Virus record (IMG/VR): IMGVR_UViG_2534682003_000007
Coordinates: 1 to 7,485 of that record
Strand: one strand, 5' to 3'
DNA: 7,485 nucleotides
Source of the DNA: a virus
Lineage: Duplodnaviria; Heunggongvirae; Uroviricota; Caudoviricetes
How positions within the stretch are numbered: position 1 is the first letter of the stretch; each line of letters starts with the position of its first letter. The notes under the pieces were generated by a model. It did no database searches. It saw only the letters and a program-made list of their open reading frames with translations, and had not been told where the DNA came from. Both the position numbers and the translations under genes were made by a program. Below are positions 1 through 7,485 of the stretch, one piece after another.

Positions 1-318
1 ACGACCAATAGCGGCTTTACCGGGCCATTGCTTACTGTTCATGTATTCGTTGGCCTGGTTAATTAGTAACTGTCTTTCTGATTCAGTAATTTCAATAAGC
101 TCTTCATGCGTGGGTGGAGGAATATCTGCCCACGCAGGCAGCCCATCATCTCCGGCAATACGGATTTTTCCTTGTGGCGGTTCAGCCATAAACTCACTGA
201 TAATATTCTGATTTACTTCCTTAGCGTCTGATAAATCCCATCCCTCTGATTTATATTTATCAATCATATCCACAGGAAAAAAAGCATTATACCTTGCGCT
301 ATAAACATATTCGTTCAT
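1..318 (-). CDS. Tail fibre assembly protein (Tfa/U-like), 3'-partial: ATG at 318..316, reading frame open to the window edge
   Basis: My own translation of the reverse complement gives MNEYVYSARYNAFFPVDMIDKYKSEGWDLSDAKEVNQNIISEFMAEPPQGKIRIAGDDGLPAWADIPPPTHEELIEITESERQLLINQANEYMNSKQWPGKAAIGR... with no stop before position 1. It begins 20 nt downstream of the stop of the tail-fibre cassette (339-341) on the same strand, with a GGTGA Shine-Dalgarno about 6 nt upstream of the ATG. Size, position and composition fit the small Tfa chaperones that follow tail-fibre genes. The family assignment is from memory, not from a search. Confidence 0.55.
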   Translation of the reverse strand, partial: MNEYVYSARYNAFFPVDMIDKYKSEGWDLSDAKEVNQNIISEFMAEPPQGKIRIAGDDGLPAWADIPPPTHEELIEITESERQLLINQANEYMNSKQWPGKAAIGR

Positions 319-338
319 ATAAATCACCCTGAATAAAA

Positions 339-707
339 TTACTCACCAACAGCCCACCAACTGTAATTCATCGATACCGTGTCGCTGGTTGATGACGTTC
401 TGTAAGCAGAATTAAAACCGGTTAACGTTGGGCCTTCTGCCGTCATCACGAACCCTCGCCCAGCGCCTAAAGGCGCACCGCCATCACCAGAATGAGTAAG
501 CATGGCGCAGTCCGCTTTTTTGGGGAAAGGGATGCTGAATGTAATTCTCATTGTTTGCGTCGATAATGTCGGCGTAACCGCACCACGACCATATTGCAGG
601 ATTTTCCCGTTGGGTAATTTCATCCATCCATCACCACTGGCAAAAGAGGCCATGTCCGGTATCTGATTTTCCCCTGTCCCAACATTTCGTTTTGCCGCTT
701 CTCCCAA
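339..707 (-). CDS. Tail fibre C-terminal variable cassette (Sv/Hv-like); probably the silent alternate copy of an invertible segment in this orientation
   Basis: 122-aa ORF rich in Gly/Ser/Thr and ending ...NYSWWAVGE, followed immediately by a Tfa-like gene, which is the usual tail-fibre plus assembly-chaperone pairing. The only start is a TTG at 705-707 with no convincing RBS. On the minus strand an in-frame TAA (719-717) lies four codons upstream, inside the putative crossover site. So in this orientation the cassette is not fused to a tail-fibre N-terminal constant region. Confidence 0.5.
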   Translation of the reverse strand: MGEAAKRNVGTGENQIPDMASFASGDGWMKLPNGKILQYGRGAVTPTLSTQTMRITFSIPFPKKADCAMLTHSGDGGAPLGAGRGFVMTAEGPTLTGFNSAYRTSSTSDTVSMNYSWWAVGE

Positions 708-724
708 ACCAACCTTTTAGAAAA
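699..724. promoter_or_regulatory. Putative 26-bp hix/gix/cix-family crossover site for a serine DNA invertase
   Basis: The sequence TTCTCCCAAACC-AA-CCTTTTAGAAAA has a 12-bp left half-site matching hixL (recalled as TTCTTGAAAACC-AA-GGTTTTTGATAA) at 9 of 12 positions, an AA central dinucleotide, and a more degenerate right half-site (8 of 12). It lies 55 bp upstream of the invertase start and exactly at the 5' boundary of the tail-fibre cassette, as gix lies at the Sc/Sv junction in Mu. Confidence 0.5.
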
Positions 725-778
725 TGCAGATATTCCGTTCAGCTGGCATGATCCCGACTTTTTACCGGGTTATTTCTC

Positions 779-1021
779 ATGTTTATCGGTTATGTACGTG
801 TATCAACAAATGACCAGAACACCGCATTACAGCGAAATGAACTGGAGTGCGCAGGATGTGAGCTGATTTTCGAAGATAAAATCAGCGGCAAAACATCAGA
901 CTGGCCGGGGCTAAAGAGGTCACTCAGAACCTTGTCAGAGGGCGATACGCTTGTGGTCTGGAAACTGGATCGCCTCGGGTATCTCAACGCTATACAAAAA
1001 ATTTCCCGCATCCGTTGCTGA
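779..1021 (+). pseudogene. Truncated Hin/Gin/Cin/Pin-family serine DNA invertase: 80 codons, only about the first 67 residues conserved
   Basis: The translation MFIGYVRVSTNDQNTALQRNELECAGCELIFEDKISGKTSDWPGLKRSLRTLSEGDTLVVWKLDRLG matches the N-terminus of Gin/Hin-type invertases nearly residue for residue, including the catalytic-serine motif YVRVSTNDQ and the GDTLVVWKLDRLGR block. After KLDRLG it diverges (YLNAIQKISRIRC) and stops at 1019-1021. I translated the two other frames downstream and neither resumes invertase-like sequence, so the 3' two-thirds, including the rest of the catalytic domain and the HTH DNA-binding domain, is deleted rather than frameshifted. Confidence 0.8.
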
Positions 1022-1056
1022 TGTCTCAATGTGTCAGACATCGCCCAACACTGACA
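1021..1056. promoter_or_regulatory. Overlapping dyad symmetries upstream of FI; candidate late-promoter activator site (Ogr/Delta-type)
   Basis: ATGTCT (1021-1026) pairs with AGACAT (1036-1041), and TGTCAG (1032-1037) pairs with CTGACA (1051-1056). This gives TGT...ACA elements about 65-100 bp upstream of the FI ATG. P2-family late promoters are known to carry a TGT-N12-ACA-type dyad near -55; the spacing here is N13 rather than N12. No strong sigma70 -35 is present, as expected for an activator-dependent promoter. Confidence 0.3.
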
Positions 1057-1119
1057 AATAGCCCCTCAACAGACCAGCCAGGACAATAACACTTGCCCAC
1101 TAACCACGGAGTTAACCGG

Positions 1120-2298
1120 ATGAGTGATTTTCACCACGGCGTGCAGGTGCTTGAGATTAACGACGGCACCCGCGTCATTTCCACTGTTGCAACCGCAATC
1201 GTCGGCATGGTCTGTACAGCCAGCGATGCGGATGCGGCAACCTTTCCCCTCAACGAGCCGGTACTGATTACCAATGTGCAAAGCGCCATTGCGAAAGCCG
1301 GTAAAAAAGGCACGCTGGCCGCGTCCCTGCAGGCCATCGCCGACCAGTCAAAACCTGTCACAGTTGTCGTGCGCGTGGACGAAGGTACCGGCGACGACGC
1401 CGAAGCGCAGACAATTTCCAATATCATCGGCGGAACGGATGAGAACGGTAAATACACCGGCATTAAAGCGCTGTTGACTGCCGAAGCGGTCACCGGCGTC
1501 AAGCCGCGCATTCTCGGCGTGCCGGGGCTGGACACCAAAGAAGTGGCGGTTGCACTGGCGTCGGTCTGTATTAGCCTGCGCGCGTTTTGTTACATCAGCG
1601 CATGGGGATGCAAGACCATTTCCGAAGCAATGGCCTATCGCGAGAATTTCAGCCAGCGCGAGCTGATGGTCATCTGGCCTGATTTCCTTGCATGGGATAC
1701 CACCACAAACGCCACCGCACCGGCATACGCAACTGCGCGCGCACTCGGCCTGCGTGCCTATATCGACCAGACCGTCGGCTGGCATAAAACCCTGTCTAAC
1801 GTCGGCGTGCAGGGTGTCACCGGCATCAGTGCGTCAGTGTTTTGGGATTTGCAGGCATCTGGCACCGATGCTGACCTGCTCAACGAGGCCGGGGTCACGA
1901 CGCTGGTGCGCAAAGATGGTTTCCGCTTTTGGGGTAACCGCACCTGCTCTGATGACCCGCTTTTCCTGTTTGAGAACTACACCCGCACCGCGCAGGTGCT
2001 GGCCGACACGATGGCCGAGGCGCACATGTGGGCGGTCGATAAGCCCATTACCGCATCGCTCATCCGTGACATTGTCGACGGCATTAATGCCAAATTCCGC
2101 GAGCTGAAATCAAATGGCTACATCGTGGACGGTGAATGCTGGTTCGACGAGGAATCGAATGACAAGGAAACCCTCAAGGCCGGGAAACTGTATATCGACT
2201 ACGACTATACGCCGGTTCCACCACTGGAAAGCCTGACCCTGCGCCAGCGTATCACCGATAAATATCTGGTGAATCTGGCCGAATCGGTCAACAGCTAA
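1120..2298 (+). CDS. FI: Contractile tail sheath protein (P2 gpFI homologue), 392 aa
   Basis: ATG at 1120 preceded by GGAG (1108-1111). The translation MSDFHHGVQVLEINDGTRVISTVATAIVGMVCTASDADA...GFRFWGNRTCSDDPLFLFENYTRTAQV...KLYIDYDYTPVPPLESLTLRQRITDKYL is near-collinear with my recollection of P2 FI. The ORF-track start at 1093 is a TTG lacking an RBS; I prefer the ATG at 1120. Confidence 0.93.
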   Translation: MSDFHHGVQVLEINDGTRVISTVATAIVGMVCTASDADAATFPLNEPVLITNVQSAIAKAGKKGTLAASLQAIADQSKPVTVVVRVDEGTGDDAEAQTISNIIGGTDENGKYTGIKALLTAEAVTGVKPRILGVPGLDTKEVAVALASVCISLRAFCYISAWGCKTISEAMAYRENFSQRELMVIWPDFLAWDTTTNATAPAYATARALGLRAYIDQTVGWHKTLSNVGVQGVTGISASVFWDLQASGTDADLLNEAGVTTLVRKDGFRFWGNRTCSDDPLFLFENYTRTAQVLADTMAEAHMWAVDKPITASLIRDIVDGINAKFRELKSNGYIVDGECWFDEESNDKETLKAGKLYIDYDYTPVPPLESLTLRQRITDKYLVNLAESVNS

Positions 2299-2313
2299 GG
2301 AGCCTGAAACAAC

Positions 2314-2832
2314 ATGGCACTACCCCGCAAACTCAAATATCTGAACATGTTTAACGACGGCCTTAGCTACATGGGCGTTGTTGAATCCGTGACGCTGCCG
2401 AAGCTGACCCGCAAACTCGAAAACTATCGCGGCGGTGGCATGAATGGCGCGGCGGCGATTGACCTCGGTCTCGACGATGATGCGTTAACCGTCGAATGGT
2501 CTGTCGGTGGCCTGCCTGATGTGGCGCTGTGGGCGCAGTACGCCGCGCCGGGTGCTGACGCTGTGCCGTTGCGTTTTGCTGGCTCTTACCAACGTGACGA
2601 CACTGGCGAAATCGTGGCGGTCGAGGTGGTCATGCGTGGCCGTCATAAAGAAATCGACGGCGGCGAGAATAAGCAGGGTGAAAACACCTCGACCAAACTG
2701 TCGACCGTATGCACCTATTACCGCCTCACGATTGATGGTAGCGACGTCATCGAAATCGACACCGTCAACATGGTTGAGAAGGTGAACGGCGTCGACCGTC
2801 TGGAACAGCACCGCCGCGCAATCGGGCTGTAA
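2314..2832 (+). CDS. FII: Tail tube protein (P2 gpFII homologue), 172 aa
   Basis: AAGGAG RBS at 2297-2302 overlapping the FI stop. The translation MALPRKLKYLNMF...VTLPKLTRKLENYRGGGMNG...LRFAGSYQRDDTGEIVAVEVVMRGR...VNGVDRLEQHRRAIGL matches the P2 FII pattern, and the gene sits directly after the sheath gene as in all P2-like tails. Confidence 0.93.
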   Translation: MALPRKLKYLNMFNDGLSYMGVVESVTLPKLTRKLENYRGGGMNGAAAIDLGLDDDALTVEWSVGGLPDVALWAQYAAPGADAVPLRFAGSYQRDDTGEIVAVEVVMRGRHKEIDGGENKQGENTSTKLSTVCTYYRLTIDGSDVIEIDTVNMVEKVNGVDRLEQHRRAIGL

Positions 2833-2837
2833 TTCCC

Positions 2838-2870
2838 TGACCGGTCAGCACTGCTGGCCGGTTATTAATC
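2838..2870 (+). terminator. Stable hairpin followed by a T-rich run between FII and E; candidate partial terminator or attenuator
   Basis: CCGGTCAGC (2841-2849), loop ACT, then GCTGGCCGG (2853-2861) form a 9-bp stem with one G-U pair, extendable to about 12 bp using 2838-2840 and 2862-2864. It is followed by TTATTAAT and lies in the 63-bp gap between the FII stop and the E start. Confidence 0.35.
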
Positions 2871-2895
2871 CCCATTCAGAGCAGAGAAAAACATC

Positions 2896-3231
2896 ATGGC
2901 AAAAGCACCACGTAAAACCGCTGAATTTGTTGATATGGCTGGCAATGAAATTGACACCGTAAACCCGAACGTCGTGACCCTCGACAAGCCGATTAAGCGC
3001 GCCGGTCAGACGATTGATAAAGTCACACTGATTGAGCCGAACGCCGGTACCCTGCGCGGTGTCAGTCTGGCAGCGGTGGCGCAGTCCGAAGTCGATGCGC
3101 TGATTAAGGTATTGCCACGCATGACCTACCCCGCGCTTACGGCGCAGGAGCTTACCGCAATGAACCTGCCCGATATGCTGTCGTTGGCCGCTAAGGTGAT
3201 TGGTTTTTTGTCACCGGCTTCGGCGGAGTAG
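2896..3231 (+). CDS. E: Tail assembly chaperone E (P2 gpE homologue), 111 aa in-frame product
   Basis: A small ORF immediately upstream of the tape measure gene, which is the conserved position of the tail assembly chaperone. Its 3' end contains the slippery heptamer. An alternative internal ATG at 2935 exists but has a poorer RBS. Confidence 0.8.
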   Translation: MAKAPRKTAEFVDMAGNEIDTVNPNVVTLDKPIKRAGQTIDKVTLIEPNAGTLRGVSLAAVAQSEVDALIKVLPRMTYPALTAQELTAMNLPDMLSLAAKVIGFLSPASAE

Positions 3232-3383
3232 ATTTCCCGCCCGACCTGTCGACCGATGACCTGATGGCGGATATCGCGGTGATATTCCACTGGCCGCTAT
3301 CAGATCTCTATTCCCTGAGTCTGACCGAGCTCATCACATGGCGCGAAAAGGCGCTGCAGCGTAGCGGACACCACAATGAGTAA
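2896..3383 (+). CDS. E+E': E+E' tail assembly chaperone made by programmed -1 ribosomal frameshift at 3204-3210; about 162 aa
   Basis: After a -1 slip on T_TTT_TTG, the new frame stays open for 57 codons (VTGFGGVDFPPDLSTDDLMADIAVIFHWPLSDLYSLSLTELITWREKALQRSGHHNE) and stops at TAA 3381-3383, overlapping the T start codon (ATGAGTAA). This is the conserved G/GT-type and P2 E/E+E' arrangement of Caudovirales tail chaperones. Confidence 0.7.
3204..3210 (+). promoter_or_regulatory. Slippery heptamer T_TTT_TTG for the -1 programmed frameshift (E to E+E')
   Basis: In the E frame the codons are GGT TTT TTG (3202-3210), so the X_XXY_YYZ heptamer is T_TTT_TTG, 21 nt before the E stop. The -1 frame is open from here to 3383. 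Confidence 0.7.
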
Positions 3384-5820
3384 TAACCTGAGACTTGAGG
3401 TTTTGCTGAAAGCGGTCGACCAGGCGACCCGACCGCTTAAATCCATCCAGACCGCGAGTAAAACCCTGTCGGGCGATATTCGCGACACACAAAAAGGGCT
3501 GCGTGACCTGAACGGGCAGGCCGCGAAAATCGACGGCTTTCGCAAAACCAGCGCTCAACTGGCCGTAACCGGCCAGTCGCTGGAGAAGGCAAAGCGCGAG
3601 GCTGAAGCGCTTGCCACGCAATTCAAAAATACTGAGCGCCCGACGCGAGCGCAGGCACAGGTGCTCGAATCCGCAAAACGTGCCGCCGAGGGGCTGCAGG
3701 TTAAATACAACAGCCTCACCGAGTCGGTTAAACGCCAGCAACGCGAGCTGGGTGCCGCCGGTATCAATACCCGCAATCTGGCAAACGATGAGCGGGGGCT
3801 TAAAACACGTATCAGCGAGACGACGGCGCAGCTCAACCGGCAGCGTGAAGCATTGGCGAAGGTCAGCGCACAGCAGGCGCACCTAAACCGAGTGAAAGAG
3901 CGATATAAATCGGGTAAGGAGCTTGCCGGTAACATGGCCGCTGCAGGTGCTGCCGGGGTCGGTATTGCGACAGCGGGAACGATGGCCGGGGTTAAATTGC
4001 TGATGCCCGGTTATGACTTTGCGCAAAAAAACTCCGAGCTGCAGGCTGTGCTCGGGGTCGATAAGCAGTCGCCAGAAATGCAGGCGTTACGCAAACAGGC
4101 GCGCCAGCTCGGTGACAATACAGCCGCTTCTGCTGATGATGCAGCCAGTGCGCAGATTATCATTGCAAAAGGTGGTGGTGATGCGGCGGCTATAGCGGCC
4201 ATGACACCTGTGACTCTCAACCTGTCGCTTGCAAACAAAAAAACAATGGAGGAAAACGCGCAACTGTTGATGGGGACAAAAGCCGCCTTTCAACTTTCTA
4301 ATGACGCGGCTGCGCATATCGGTGATGTTCTTTCAACCACGATGAACAAAACCACCGCTGATTTTCAGGGACTAAGTGACTCATTAAGTTACCTTGCCCC
4401 TGTTGCGAAAAATGCTGGGGTGAGTCTTGAACAGGCGGCGGCGATTACCGGCACACTTCATGATAATAACATCAGGGGGTCAATGGCTGGGACTGGCGGC
4501 GCTGCTGTTATAACGAGACTACAGGCACCCACAGGCAAAGCATACGATGCTCTCAAAGAGCTGGGAGTTAAAACCTCAGACAGCAAAGGCAATACGCGCC
4601 CGCTATTTACCATCCTGAAAGAAATGCAGGCCAGTTTTAAGCGCAACAATCTTGGTACCTCACAAAAGGCCGAGTACGTGAAAACGATATTCGGCGAGGA
4701 GGCTATGAAGTCTGCAAGTGTCCTTATGGCGGCAGCGGCAAGCGGAAAACTCGATAAGCTAACTGCCACGATAAAGGATTCAGACGGTAAAACAGAGGAG
4801 CTGGTCAAGGTTATGCAGGATAACCTCGGCGGCGACTTCAAGGAGTTCCAGTCAGCATATGAGGCGGTCGGCACTGACCTCTATGACCAGCAAGATAGCT
4901 CATTGCGTCAGCTAACTCAGACAGCAACACGGTATGTGCTAAAGCTTGATGACTGGATCAAAGACAACAAGGAGTTAGCGGAAACTATCGGCATCATCGC
5001 CGGTGGTGCGCTGGCGCTGATTGGTATCATCGGCGGCATTGGTCTCGTTGCGTGGCCGGTTGTCATGGGGATTAATGCAATTATCGCCGCTGCTGGCGTG
5101 CTGGGTACGGTCTTTACTGTCGTCGGTAGTGCCATTGCGACAGCGCTCGGTGCGATTACCTGGCCGATAGTGGCCGTCGGTGCGGCGATTGTGGCGGGGG
5201 CGCTACTCATCCGTAAATATTGGGAGCCCATCAGCGCATTTTTCTCGGGAGTGATTGAAGGCATCATGAGTGCCTTTGCCCCAGTCGGGGAAATGTTAGC
5301 TCCACTGGCTCCCATTTTTGATGGTCTCGGCGAGAAACTGCGCGGCGTCTGGCAGTGGTTTAAAGACCTGATAGCACCGGTTAAGGCCACGCAGGAAACG
5401 CTTGATAGCTGCAAAAATGTCGGCGTCATATTTGGTCAGGCACTGGCCTCTGCCTTGATGGCTCCGCTCAATGTTTTTAACAAGCTGCGCAGCGGTGTCG
5501 ACTGGCTTCTCGAAAAGCTCGGCATCATCAACAAAGAGTCGGACAGCCTCGACCAGACCGCCGCCAAAACCAATGCCGCCACACAGGGTAATTCCTACAT
5601 CCCGGCAACCAGCACATATGGCGGCTATCAGGCTTATCAGCCAGTTACCGCACCGGCGGGGCGCTCTTACATTGACCAGAGCAAAAGCGAATACAACATC
5701 AATCTGCCGGGAGGTGTTGCGCCGGGGCATCAGCTTGACAGACAACTACGCGACACGCTCGAACAGATTGAGCGCGATAAACGCGCCCGCCAGCGTGCCA
5801 ACATGACCCACGACTATTGA
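3376..5820 (+). CDS. T: Tail tape measure protein (P2 gpT homologue), 814 aa
   Basis: Long ORF directly after the chaperone. The N-terminal third is coiled-coil-like and rich in Ala, Gln, Lys and Glu. A long Gly/Ala/Ile/Val-rich hydrophobic block is encoded around 4981-5223. The length is close to the roughly 815 aa of P2 T, and the start overlaps the E' stop. Confidence 0.9.
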   Translation: MSNNLRLEVLLKAVDQATRPLKSIQTASKTLSGDIRDTQKGLRDLNGQAAKIDGFRKTSAQLAVTGQSLEKAKREAEALATQFKNTERPTRAQAQVLESAKRAAEGLQVKYNSLTESVKRQQRELGAAGINTRNLANDERGLKTRISETTAQLNRQREALAKVSAQQAHLNRVKERYKSGKELAGNMAAAGAAGVGIATAGTMAGVKLLMPGYDFAQKNSELQAVLGVDKQSPEMQALRKQARQLGDNTAASADDAASAQIIIAKGGGDAAAIAAMTPVTLNLSLANKKTMEENAQLLMGTKAAFQLSNDAAAHIGDVLSTTMNKTTADFQGLSDSLSYLAPVAKNAGVSLEQAAAITGTLHDNNIRGSMAGTGGAAVITRLQAPTGKAYDALKELGVKTSDSKGNTRPLFTILKEMQASFKRNNLGTSQKAEYVKTIFGEEAMKSASVLMAAAASGKLDKLTATIKDSDGKTEELVKVMQDNLGGDFKEFQSAYEAVGTDLYDQQDSSLRQLTQTATRYVLKLDDWIKDNKELAETIGIIAGGALALIGIIGGIGLVAWPVVMGINAIIAAAGVLGTVFTVVGSAIATALGAITWPIVAVGAAIVAGALLIRKYWEPISAFFSGVIEGIMSAFAPVGEMLAPLAPIFDGLGEKLRGVWQWFKDLIAPVKATQETLDSCKNVGVIFGQALASALMAPLNVFNKLRSGVDWLLEKLGIINKESDSLDQTAAKTNAATQGNSYIPATSTYGGYQAYQPVTAPAGRSYIDQSKSEYNINLPGGVAPGHQLDRQLRDTLEQIERDKRARQRANMTHDY

Positions 5821-5833
5821 GGGGGATTAAACG

Positions 5834-6319
5834 ATGATGCTTGCTCTCGGAATGTTTGTGTTTGAACTTCGCACCCTGCCTTACCAGTCGATGCAGCATT
5901 CGAAAGATTATCGCTGGGTGTCCAATGACCGGGTGGGTAAACCACCTGCCTATCAGTTTCTTGGCGAGGGGGAAACCTCTATACAGCTTGCTGGTACGCT
6001 ATACCCCGCTATCACTGGCGGTTGGATCTCACTAAAGGCTGTAGAGGTGATGGCCAATGAAGGCAGAGCGTGGCCGTTGATAGAGGGAACCGGAAATATC
6101 CTCGGGATGTATATCGTCGATAAAGTATCGACTACACGCACCGAGTTTTTCAGTGATGGTGCGGCCAGAAAGATTGATTTCACGCTTTCGCTAAAACGGG
6201 TTGATGAATCGCTGACAGAGATGTTTGGTGACCTGAATAAACAGGCCAGTGAGCTTCTCGGCTCTGCCGGTAATTTGACAGATAAACTGCAGGGTATGCC
6301 CGGAGGTTTCACTGCATGA
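5834..6319 (+). CDS. U: Tail protein U (P2 gpU homologue), 161 aa
   Basis: GAGGGGG RBS at 5819-5825. The translation MMLALGMFVFELRTLPYQSMQHSKDYRW...GEGETSIQLAGTLYPAITGG...EGRAWPLIEGTGNILGMYIVDKVSTTRTEFFSDGAARKIDFTLSLKRV matches the P2 U pattern. Its stop overlaps the D start (ATGA at 6316-6319). Confidence 0.9.
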   Translation: MMLALGMFVFELRTLPYQSMQHSKDYRWVSNDRVGKPPAYQFLGEGETSIQLAGTLYPAITGGWISLKAVEVMANEGRAWPLIEGTGNILGMYIVDKVSTTRTEFFSDGAARKIDFTLSLKRVDESLTEMFGDLNKQASELLGSAGNLTDKLQGMPGGFTA

Positions 6320-7485
6320 TAACGGGGATGGCAATTGACGCCGGTGCCAGCCTTGCACCGGCATTTATGTTGACGCTGAACAGCCAGGACATTACCAGCA
6401 ATTTTAGTGACCGATTGATTTCTCTCACCATGACCGATAACCGGGGTTTTGAGGCTGACCAGCTCGATATTGAGCTTGATGATACCGACGGGAAAGTTGA
6501 GTTACCCCTGCGCGGGGCAGTGCTGACGCTGTGGCTTGGCTGGCAGGGCTCGGCGTTGCTGAATAAGGGGGATTTTACGGTCGATGAGATTGAGCACCGG
6601 GGAGCGCCTGACACCCTGACCATCCGGGCGCGCAGCGCGGACTTTCGCGGCACGCTAAATTCCAGGCGTGAAGAGTCATGGCATGACACCACCATCGGAG
6701 AACTGGTCAGCACCATCGCAAAACGCAATAAACTGACGGCCAGTGTCGCTGATTCACTGAAAAAAATCCCGGTACCGCATATCGACCAGTCGCAGGAGTC
6801 CGACGCGGTGTTTCTGACCCGGCTAGCTGACCGAAACGGAGCTGCGGTGTCAGTGAAAGCGGGGAAATTGCTGTTTCTGAAAGCCGGTAGTGCGATGACG
6901 GCCAGCGGCAGACCCATCCCGCAAATGACGCTGACCCGTAGCAATGGTGACCGTCATCAATTTGCTATTGCCGACCGTGGGGCTTATACCGGCGTAACGG
7001 CAAAATGGTTGCACACCAAAGACCCGAAGCCGCAAAAGCAAAAAGTGACGCTGAAACGCCAGCCAAAAGAGAAACACCTACGCGCACTGGAGCACCCGAA
7101 AGCAAAGCCTGTCAGCAAAAAGACAAAGGCCAAAAAAGAGCAGGAGGCTCGCGAGGGTGAGTATATGGCCGGTGAAGCCGATAACGTGCTGGCGCTGACA
7201 ACGGTCTACGCATCAAAGGCGCAGGCGATGCGTGCCGCTCAGGCTAAGTGGGATAAACTGCAGCGAGGCGTTGCGGAGTTTTCAATCACACTGGCGCTAG
7301 GGCGAGCGGATTTATTTCCTGAGACGCCTGTACGTGTGTCGGGCTTTAAGCGCGTAATAGACGAACAGGTATGGTTAATCAGTAAAGTAACTCACATTCT
7401 GAATAATAGTGGCTTCACGACGGGGTTAGAGCTTGAGGTTAAGCTATCTGATATAGAGTACAGCTCAGAGGAAAGCGAAATATAA
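6316..7485 (+). CDS. D: Tail protein D (P2 gpD homologue; tail hub / late-control protein), 389 aa
   Basis: Complete ORF with a TAA stop at 7483-7485, translationally coupled to U. Its size (389 aa against about 387 for P2 D) and its position as the last gene of the FI-FII-E-T-U-D operon fit the assignment. Confidence 0.88.
   Translation: MITGMAIDAGASLAPAFMLTLNSQDITSNFSDRLISLTMTDNRGFEADQLDIELDDTDGKVELPLRGAVLTLWLGWQGSALLNKGDFTVDEIEHRGAPDTLTIRARSADFRGTLNSRREESWHDTTIGELVSTIAKRNKLTASVADSLKKIPVPHIDQSQESDAVFLTRLADRNGAAVSVKAGKLLFLKAGSAMTASGRPIPQMTLTRSNGDRHQFAIADRGAYTGVTAKWLHTKDPKPQKQKVTLKRQPKEKHLRALEHPKAKPVSKKTKAKKEQEAREGEYMAGEADNVLALTTVYASKAQAMRAAQAKWDKLQRGVAEFSITLALGRADLFPETPVRVSGFKRVIDEQVWLISKVTHILNNSGFTTGLELEVKLSDIEYSSEESEI

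Follow-up and report, generated by a model that had tools for sequence, protein, structure and literature searches.

A Tail-Fiber Inversion Switch in a P2-Like Escherichia coli Prophage That Has Lost Its Own Invertase and Is Probably Operated in trans

Results

Organization of the Locus

The 7,485-nucleotide (nt) stretch of DNA analyzed here (positions 1 to 7,485 of IMG/VR record IMGVR_UViG_2534682003_000007; referred to in its full length as the window) contains the tail-gene block of a P2-like (Peduoviridae) Escherichia coli prophage, and at its left end the right part of a tail-fiber inversion switch of the Gin/Pin type adjoins the remnant of a serine invertase gene (Table 1). The whole window was found at 100% identity at positions 9223-16707 of L008, a 4.7-Mb E. 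coli contig (GCA_036872275.1) that was located by looking up the exact product of 80 amino acids (aa) of the invertase remnant and of which 20 kb were read. The tail genes of the window are 98.6% identical to those of the Peduoviridae record vB_EcoM-613R3. Membership in the P2-like group, known here from sequence, follows from the Pfam families of the called genes (L006-L009), the annotation of P2 and the alignment of the activator-dependent late promoter pF: the late genes are ordered H-G-(accessory slot)-FI-FII-E/E'-T-U-D-ogr, and the 20 kb of L008 hold a complete late-gene set. In phage P2, the slot between G and FI is taken by fun(Z). The first-pass annotation thus read the anatomy correctly, namely a P2-like prophage with a tail-fiber module in the slot where P2 carries Z/fun, a Gin/Pin-type site and an inactivated invertase.

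Crossover Sites and the Invertible Segment

The right crossover site (699-724) is the 26-bp sequence TTCTCCCAAACC AA CCTTTTAGAAAA. It had been described as hix/gix-like, and this could be specified as Gin/Pin-type: it agrees at 23 of 26 positions with the pinE-proximal site of the E. coli element e14 (TTCTCCCAAACC AA CGTTTATGAAAA), and the distance from the site center to the start codon of the invertase gene is 67.5 nt both here and in e14. Chance alone would give 0.03 occurrences of the 15-nt core CTTCTCCCAAACCAA (698-712) in the window, where it is present once. A partner site and a tail-fiber constant region, the absence of which leftward of the window had been named in the first-pass annotation as a potential refutation, are both present in L008. 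The left site is located within the tail-fiber gene H (L008 8018-8043), approximately 1.9 kb left of the right site and 1.2 kb left of the window, with an inter-arm distance of 1,881 nt, and reads CGCTCCCAAACG AA GGTTTTTAAGAA from the segment interior. The two sites form an inverted pair, and reading either of them outward from its inner half gives AA as the core; as inverted repeats they are 18-21 nt long and imperfect (83-90% alike).

Just left of the window, gene H of L008 codes for 369 aa (Phage_tail_fib and Collar) and is followed by the assembly gene for Tfa (197 aa), while the opposite strand carries the genes for Tfa' (147 aa) and the silent cassette Sv' (122 codons, Gp53-like_C). The organization in L008 is that of a host-range module: the constant 5' part of H is situated outside the segment, and inside it two 3' cassettes face each other, each with an assembly gene. 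Both cassettes and both assembly genes are intact open reading frames (ORFs), and the H fusions are in frame in both orientations. When the segment was inverted in silico at the central AA, the silent cassette continued the reading frame of the constant H part (...DVLKNL/GLGEAAKRNVG...), yielding a 326-aa product followed by the second assembly gene. Left of the window, in locus L004, an 18-nt inverted repeat (94% complementary, 14-nt spacer) is found at 7818-7867, where the two convergent assembly genes meet, and it may represent a bidirectional terminator in the middle of the segment.

Comparison of the window with the P2-like prophage of E. coli O157:H7 TW14359 (L001 6001-6753) revealed a mosaic: identity amounts to 98.5% over window positions 1-712, 73% over 713-753 and about 79% further right. 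The boundary within 1-753 coincides exactly with the crossover core, which suggests, as judged by the alignment, that cassettes are exchanged between phages at or beside the site.

Internal Deletion of the Resident Invertase Gene

As the first-pass annotation had stated, an invertase, here of the Pin/Gin type, is preserved in the ORF at 779-1021 up to residue 67, its catalytic-serine motif (YVRVSTNDQ) included, and the Pfam Resolvase match spans residues 3-67 of the remnant, corresponding to model positions 2-76 of 145. No HTH_7 domain was detected by Pfam in the product of the remnant ORF. A full resident serine recombinase, comprising catalytic domain, helix E and helix-turn-helix (HTH) domain, is therefore absent, only residues 1-67 being in frame. 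The intact gene of the O157:H7 TW14359 P2-like prophage encodes 197 aa with Resolvase and HTH_7 domains (E = 1e-93 against the Gin structure 3UJ3), and its alignment to the window revealed the lesion as a single internal gap of 311 nt between positions 981 and 982. The annotated event, a deletion rather than a frameshift, was thereby supported, but the accompanying statement that everything downstream had been lost was not: the deletion is internal and the last 25 codons persist at 984-1061 in another reading frame, encoding STLYKKFPASVADVSMCQTSPNTDK followed by a stop codon (STLYKKFPAS...NTDK), to which the C-terminus of the intact O157 invertase (STLYKKFPSS...RDK and stop) was aligned. Approximately codons 68-171 were removed, so that the DRLGR motif lacks its second Arg, and helix E and the greater part of the DNA-binding domain are gone. 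A GG microhomology of 2-3 nt at the junction is possible, albeit unproven.

At least 35 complete E. coli genomes align across the deletion junction without interruption, and the junction is common to the base in all eight aligned alleles from different strains. A sequencing or assembly error, named in the first-pass annotation as a potential refutation, is thereby ruled out. In the index of the assembly collection, 314 blocks contain exactly this 80-aa product, the cluster of which (P0001) is present on 133 contigs, and PGAP annotates the remnant as an incomplete recombinase pseudogene. Around 70 complete genomes carry the FI lineage at 90% identity or more, approximately 35-44 of them with the deletion junction; the two inspected FI-lineage genomes outside the junction set have no switch at all. 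In these (L025 and L026, with FI identities of 96% and 92%, respectively), a gap of 131 nt (4369-4501 in either record) separates H and one assembly gene from FI, and homology to the window starts only at about 1056, inside pF. Since these relatives lack it, the switch is, by this comparison, an accessory module in the FI lineage. An intact version of the present allele was not found in the protein search; the nearest non-deleted relatives are 91-93% identical and come from other phage types.

The remnant carries F2, E21 and W42 (SDRPGL to SDWPGL) at positions where the nearest relatives, which have the residues specific to its lineage in common with it, keep MLIGY, NAL and SDRPGL. W42 stands in place of the conserved Arg of the DRPGL motif, an active-site residue in serine recombinases. 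Additionally, frameshifting indels occur at about 895 and 911, namely a 4-nt insertion or duplication in vB_EcoM-613R3 and the loss of one G from a G-run in strain CH423 and in L021. They fall 3' of the putative enhancer described below, and the CH423 lineage flips regardless. As indicated by these alleles, the remnant is decaying further as a gene, and because of W42 and the frameshifting indels, together with the flipping of the CH423 lineage, we ascribe no function to the 80-aa peptide. The identity to the O157 gene is 86% over nt 1-100 and 71% over nt 101-203, a difference that is confounded by lineage-specific divergence and a naturally conserved N-terminus and that was not used as evidence.

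Partly deleted invertases were also observed elsewhere. A 117-aa product from Salmonella (P0039, 33 contigs) has an in-frame deletion starting from the same DRLGR motif (DRLGR/IGGR), and P0024 (137 aa, Citrobacter) and P0005 are partly deleted as well; a Resolvase-Caudo_TAP fusion is also on record. Loss of the invertase core may hence be recurrent, as far as these proteins indicate. In L002 (phage 'P2' of E. coli O157:H43 T22), the invertase gene at 5796-6290 is frameshifted near the C-terminus, giving 164 aa without the HTH part, and is probably defective judging from its reading frame, and both crossover sites are identical (TTCTCCCAAACCAAGGTATGCGAGAA). In L005 (E. coli TW10598, 4222-8983), a large internal deletion of the prophage has made the portal and terminase genes abut a truncated tail-fiber gene, with the capsid-to-baseplate genes gone; this copy retains the same dead invertase and the site.

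Inversion of the Segment in Strains Carrying the Deletion

The flipped H predicted in silico exists exactly: when used as a query, it retrieved P0121 (326 aa) with 100% identity over the full length. The contig encoding P0121 (L013, GCA_012007385.1) carries the same prophage (99.97% identical) with the same deletion allele in the opposite orientation. As compared to L008, 2 of 6,619 nt and 1 of 4,481 nt differ in the flanks, and from one site core to the other, 1,901 nt match without exception in inverted orientation. Moreover, the sites of L013 are the reciprocal hybrids that had been predicted beforehand, CGCTCCCAAACG AA CCTTTTAGAAAA and TTCTCCCAAACC AA GGTTTTTAAGAA. The parental sites of L008 differ at the positions directly flanking AA on both sides, so that the crossover must have taken place within the 2-bp core, as is characteristic of a serine invertase.

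Precise conservative inversion at the central 2 bp was likewise found in two clonal strain sets. EC12 and its counterparts EC15 and EC18, all from one study, match at 100% in their flanks (7.1 and 9.4 kb) and differ by the inversion of a 1,883-nt segment; CH423 (4,740,904 bp) and CH425 (4,740,899 bp) have 100% identical flanks and encode the same two Tfa proteins on swapped strands. The dead invertase is present in all strains for which both orientations were seen (L008/L013, EC12/EC15/EC18 and CH423/CH425). Neither the arrangement of the window nor its flipped form was found among complete E. coli genomes, both being derived from draft assemblies via exact-protein look-ups. The comparison of assemblies shows that inversion occurred after the deletion. 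Consequently, the headline of the first-pass annotation, a disabled switch frozen in one orientation, was not sustained, whereas its proviso that another invertase might act in trans fits the data.

Cis Elements Left by the Deletion

The deletion allele keeps the two crossover sites, the first 203 nt of the invertase gene and its last 80 nt. Within the 5' part, two Fis-like 15-mers at 801-815 and 849-863 have centers 48 bp apart and are located about 97 bp from the site center. Alignment of the first 203 nt, for which hin was added only as a guide, showed that the remnant, gin, pinE and the O157 gene all have Fis-like 15-mers at the same two places (gene nt 23-37 and 71-85); scoring relied on a crude Fis consensus. 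For comparison, the Hin enhancer is 65 bp long, with two Fis sites 47 bp apart and situated about 100 bp from hixL (PMC3798978). The Fis-like sites lie more than 110 nt upstream of the deletion, and because the latter starts only at gene nt 204, the region of the putative enhancer is intact. From positional homology we infer that the retained 5' third would hold a functional Fis-dependent enhancer.

The retained 3' end of the invertase gene overlaps the homologue of pF, an essential late promoter that drives the tail operon. Alignment to the annotated P2 pF identified the activator-site homologue TGTG...CCAAC at 1030-1049, followed by the conserved GACAAATAGCC at 1053-1063, and the pattern TGT-N12-ACA of the activator site had no match in the pF region. 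A scan of 650-1150 for sigma-70 promoters and terminators returned nothing, and a sigma-70 match at pF is not expected because this promoter is activator-dependent. An Rfam scan of the whole window gave no family above threshold. The plus-strand genes 3' of FI are FII, E/E', T, U and D.

Table 1. Features of the inversion switch and the adjoining start of the tail operon (window coordinates).
Feature	Position	Strand	Basis
Silent tail-fiber assembly gene tfa', first 106 codons (full length 147 aa, the rest left of the window)	1..318	-	L008 9097-9540 (-); Pfam Caudo_TAP, 1.1e-30
Silent alternative C-terminal cassette Sv' of tail fiber H, 122 codons, without a start codon of its own	339..707	-	Pfam Gp53-like_C, 7.3e-13
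Right crossover site: inner half 699-710, central AA 711-712, outer half 713-724	699..724	+	Match to the e14 pinE-proximal site; exchange mapping, L008 vs. L013
Invertase gene remnant with codons 1-67 and 2 further nt (called ORF extends to 1021; 80 aa)	779..981	+	Partial Pfam Resolvase match; alignments
Putative Fis-dependent recombinational enhancer	798..866		Inferred from positional homology with gin, pinE and hin and a crude Fis consensus score
Deletion junction, 311 nt missing relative to the intact O157:H7 prophage gene	981..982		Alignments
3' end of the invertase gene (last 25 codons and stop), in a reading frame other than that of the 5' remnant	984..1061	+	Alignment with the C-terminus of the intact O157 invertase
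P2-type late promoter pF of the FI operon	1030..1095	+	Alignment with annotated P2 pF
Tail sheath gene FI, first gene of the late operon 3' of the switch	1120..2298	+	Pfam Phage_sheath_1

A Candidate Helper Invertase

Helper invertases were sought by walking along the chromosome of CH423; the places hit per record by megablast were uninformative in this respect, as the query also spans the conserved pF and PinR and PinQ are too divergent. The CH423 chromosome has no e14 at icd and no Qin, and it carries a Rac-like prophage with an intact PinR (Resolvase and HTH_7) that is 100% identical to PinR of K-12. PinQ, PinR and PinE are all reported to invert the P segment of e14 at the repeats CCTTCTCCCAAACCAA (PMC12529663; bioRxiv 10.1101/2025.03.28.646004), which have the same core as the site described here. 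Since CH423 flips in the absence of e14 and Qin, possesses an intact PinR, and PinR has been reported to invert the e14 P segment, PinR is a concrete candidate for the helper in this strain, as judged from its gene content, rather than a demonstrated one. The two versions of the e14 study differ in the enzyme that they name: the bioRxiv preprint credits the inversion of P to PinR of Rac, whereas the Nucleic Acids Research version, with apparently the same numbers, credits it to PinQ of Qin and in places to 'PinQ from cryptic prophage rac'. The enzyme used for e14 inversion is thus ambiguous, and PinR of the preprint appears to be PinQ of the journal version.

Discussion

Here, the right end of a Gin/Pin-type tail-fiber switch was analyzed in a P2-like prophage of E. 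coli, and we consider it likely that this switch, the own invertase of which is dead, is operated in trans. The 1.9-kb segment between the site in H and the site at 699-724 provides two alternative C-termini of H, each with its assembly gene. According to the mechanism that we propose, a serine invertase acting on both 26-bp sites would cut at the central AA, turn one pair of subunits by 180 degrees and rejoin the ends, which would change the C-terminus that is joined to the constant part of H, so that the silent cassette would be expressed only after inversion. The deletion has removed the resident enzyme and spared all cis elements, i.e., both sites, the enhancer position and pF. The module would thereby have become a non-autonomous element, flipped by a Pin-family invertase of another prophage in the same cell.

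The alternative that comes closest is that the switch has decayed and is frozen in a single orientation, with the silent cassette and the site as relics awaiting loss. The resident invertase is certainly non-functional, the left site of L008 has three mismatches in its inner half, and the module is dispensable, some relatives of the same lineage having no switch of any kind; moreover, the helper walk was confined to the chromosome of CH423. Against this stand the occurrence of the same prophage with the same deletion in the opposite orientation after core exchange, the two clonal strain sets that differ solely by the inversion, and the preservation of cassettes and assembly genes as intact ORFs with both fusions in frame. 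Because inversion within the lineage already contradicts it, we regard a frozen switch as unlikely.

Still less probable is that the differences in orientation arose without a serine invertase, be it by RecA-dependent recombination, by assembly artefacts or by independent acquisition of the two orientations and later transfer of the deletion allele. The evidence is indeed comparative only, and short inverted repeats can confuse assemblers. However, the repeats of 18-21 nt are imperfect (83-90%) and short for RecA-dependent recombination, the exchange between L008 and L013 is confined to the 2-bp core between positions that differ, and the flanks of the clonal pairs are 100% identical. Furthermore, a repeat of about 20 nt is no trap for modern assemblies, and three independent pairs display the same clean event. 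That the 80-aa fragment is kept as a functional protein, e.g., in a regulatory role or as a partner with a dominant-negative effect on other invertases, is very improbable: despite its preserved start codon and catalytic-serine motif and its wide occurrence (314 index blocks; P0001 on 133 contigs), for which the spread of the prophage accounts, it lacks helix E (the dimer/tetramer interface) and the DNA-binding domain, has Trp in place of the conserved active-site Arg, and is frameshifted in two lineages, one of which still flips.

Several points nevertheless weigh against operation of the switch in trans. L008 and L013 come from different assemblies, the strains of which need not be closely related, and the comparison of assemblies captures past inversion rather than its rate or the coexistence of both orientations in one culture. 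The weaker inner half of the left site of L008 (CGCTCCCAAACG) might also be unfavorable. The enhancer assignment depends on the homologous positions of the Fis-like sites, on a hin sequence that served only as a guide and on a crude consensus score, and the second Fis-like site (GCGCAGGATGTGAGC) has a G+C-rich center. As to the helper, PinR is only about 38% identical to PinE (PMC12529663), so that its action on the present sites has the status of a candidate activity, and in the own host of the window the switch could be frozen at present.

Taken together, the system is best described as a non-autonomous version of the known Din-family tail-fiber switch, and its nearest counterparts are the e14 P segment with PinE and the intact modules of other P2-like prophages. 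The order in e14 is the same, i.e., constant part of stf, cassette and tfa, tfa' and cassette', site and invertase; the core CTTCTCCCAAACCAA is identical, 23 of 26 positions agree in the proximal site, which lies at an equal distance (67.5 nt) from the start codon, and the remnant can be aligned with PinE over its first 67 residues. The e14 segment is likewise inverted by invertases of other prophages (PMC12529663). However, e14 is a defective lambdoid remnant with an intact pinE, whereas the resident gene here is internally deleted in a P2-like prophage with complete late genes in the 20 kb of L008 that were read; a recently recognized link to anti-T2 defense is a feature of the e14 segment. 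In K-12, complete deletion of pinE locked the e14 segment despite the presence of PinQ (PMC12529663), which fits a loss of the enhancer, yet other explanations exist. The P2-like prophages of O157:H7 TW14359 and enteropathogenic E. coli (EPEC) E2348/69 carry an intact module in the same slot between G and FI, and in the former the silent cassette is the same (98.5% identity). In contrast to the remnant, these modules encode a full-length invertase (197 aa, Resolvase and HTH_7), and right of the crossover core the O157 prophage and the window are only 73-80% identical. Coexisting orientations have been measured in EPEC P2-like prophages (PMC4272514).

Host-range switches of this kind are also known from Mu (G/Gin) and P1 (C/Cin), in which C-termini of tail fibers and assembly genes are inverted between 26-bp sites with a 2-bp core, and in which a Fis-dependent enhancer is found at the start of the invertase gene, the position of the putative enhancer here. 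Contrarily to the present system, both phages carry functional invertases, and the sites of Mu differ in sequence and have a GA core (TTCCTGTAAACC GA GGTTTTGGATAA). A precedent for inversion in trans is provided by Salmonella: Fin of the P2-like prophage Fels-2 flips the H segment in trans, as cited in PMC4272514 and PMC12529663, and reporters with inactivated hin were flipped by plasmid-borne Hin (PMC4513852). As proposed here, a segment without an active invertase of its own is inverted in trans with sites and enhancer in cis, and Fin resides in a P2-like prophage, as did the ancestor of the present gene. The Salmonella cases, however, concern laboratory constructs or two redundant intact enzymes, whereas the loss of the enzyme is natural and widespread here, and the payload here is a tail fiber rather than a flagellin promoter.

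Cross-complementation among Gin, Cin, Pin, Hin and Fin has been textbook knowledge since the 1980s, and the advance made here is incremental. Mildly new is a widespread natural P2-like lineage in which the invertase has been lost and flipping kept, the endpoints of the deletion leaving the enhancer position and pF intact. It is tempting to speculate that these endpoints are no accident, i.e., that the recombinase was shed while selection keeps the two sites, the enhancer and pF, making host-range switching dependent on the invertases of competing prophages; we hold this to be possible but rather doubtful. Internally deleted invertases are also on record from Salmonella (P0039) and Citrobacter (P0024), so that invertible segments might repeatedly have lost their enzyme in evolution and yet stayed flippable.

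A truncated invertase gene beside an invertible segment should therefore not be read as a locked switch, since the state of a phase-variable tail fiber can be governed by recombinases whose genes lie in other parts of the genome. This bears on the prediction of prophage host range and tailocin specificity from genome sequences, on pseudogene calls beside invertible regions and on the mutual influence of co-resident prophages. Moreover, the lineage offers a natural test case for the requirement in cis of the enhancer inside Din invertase genes.

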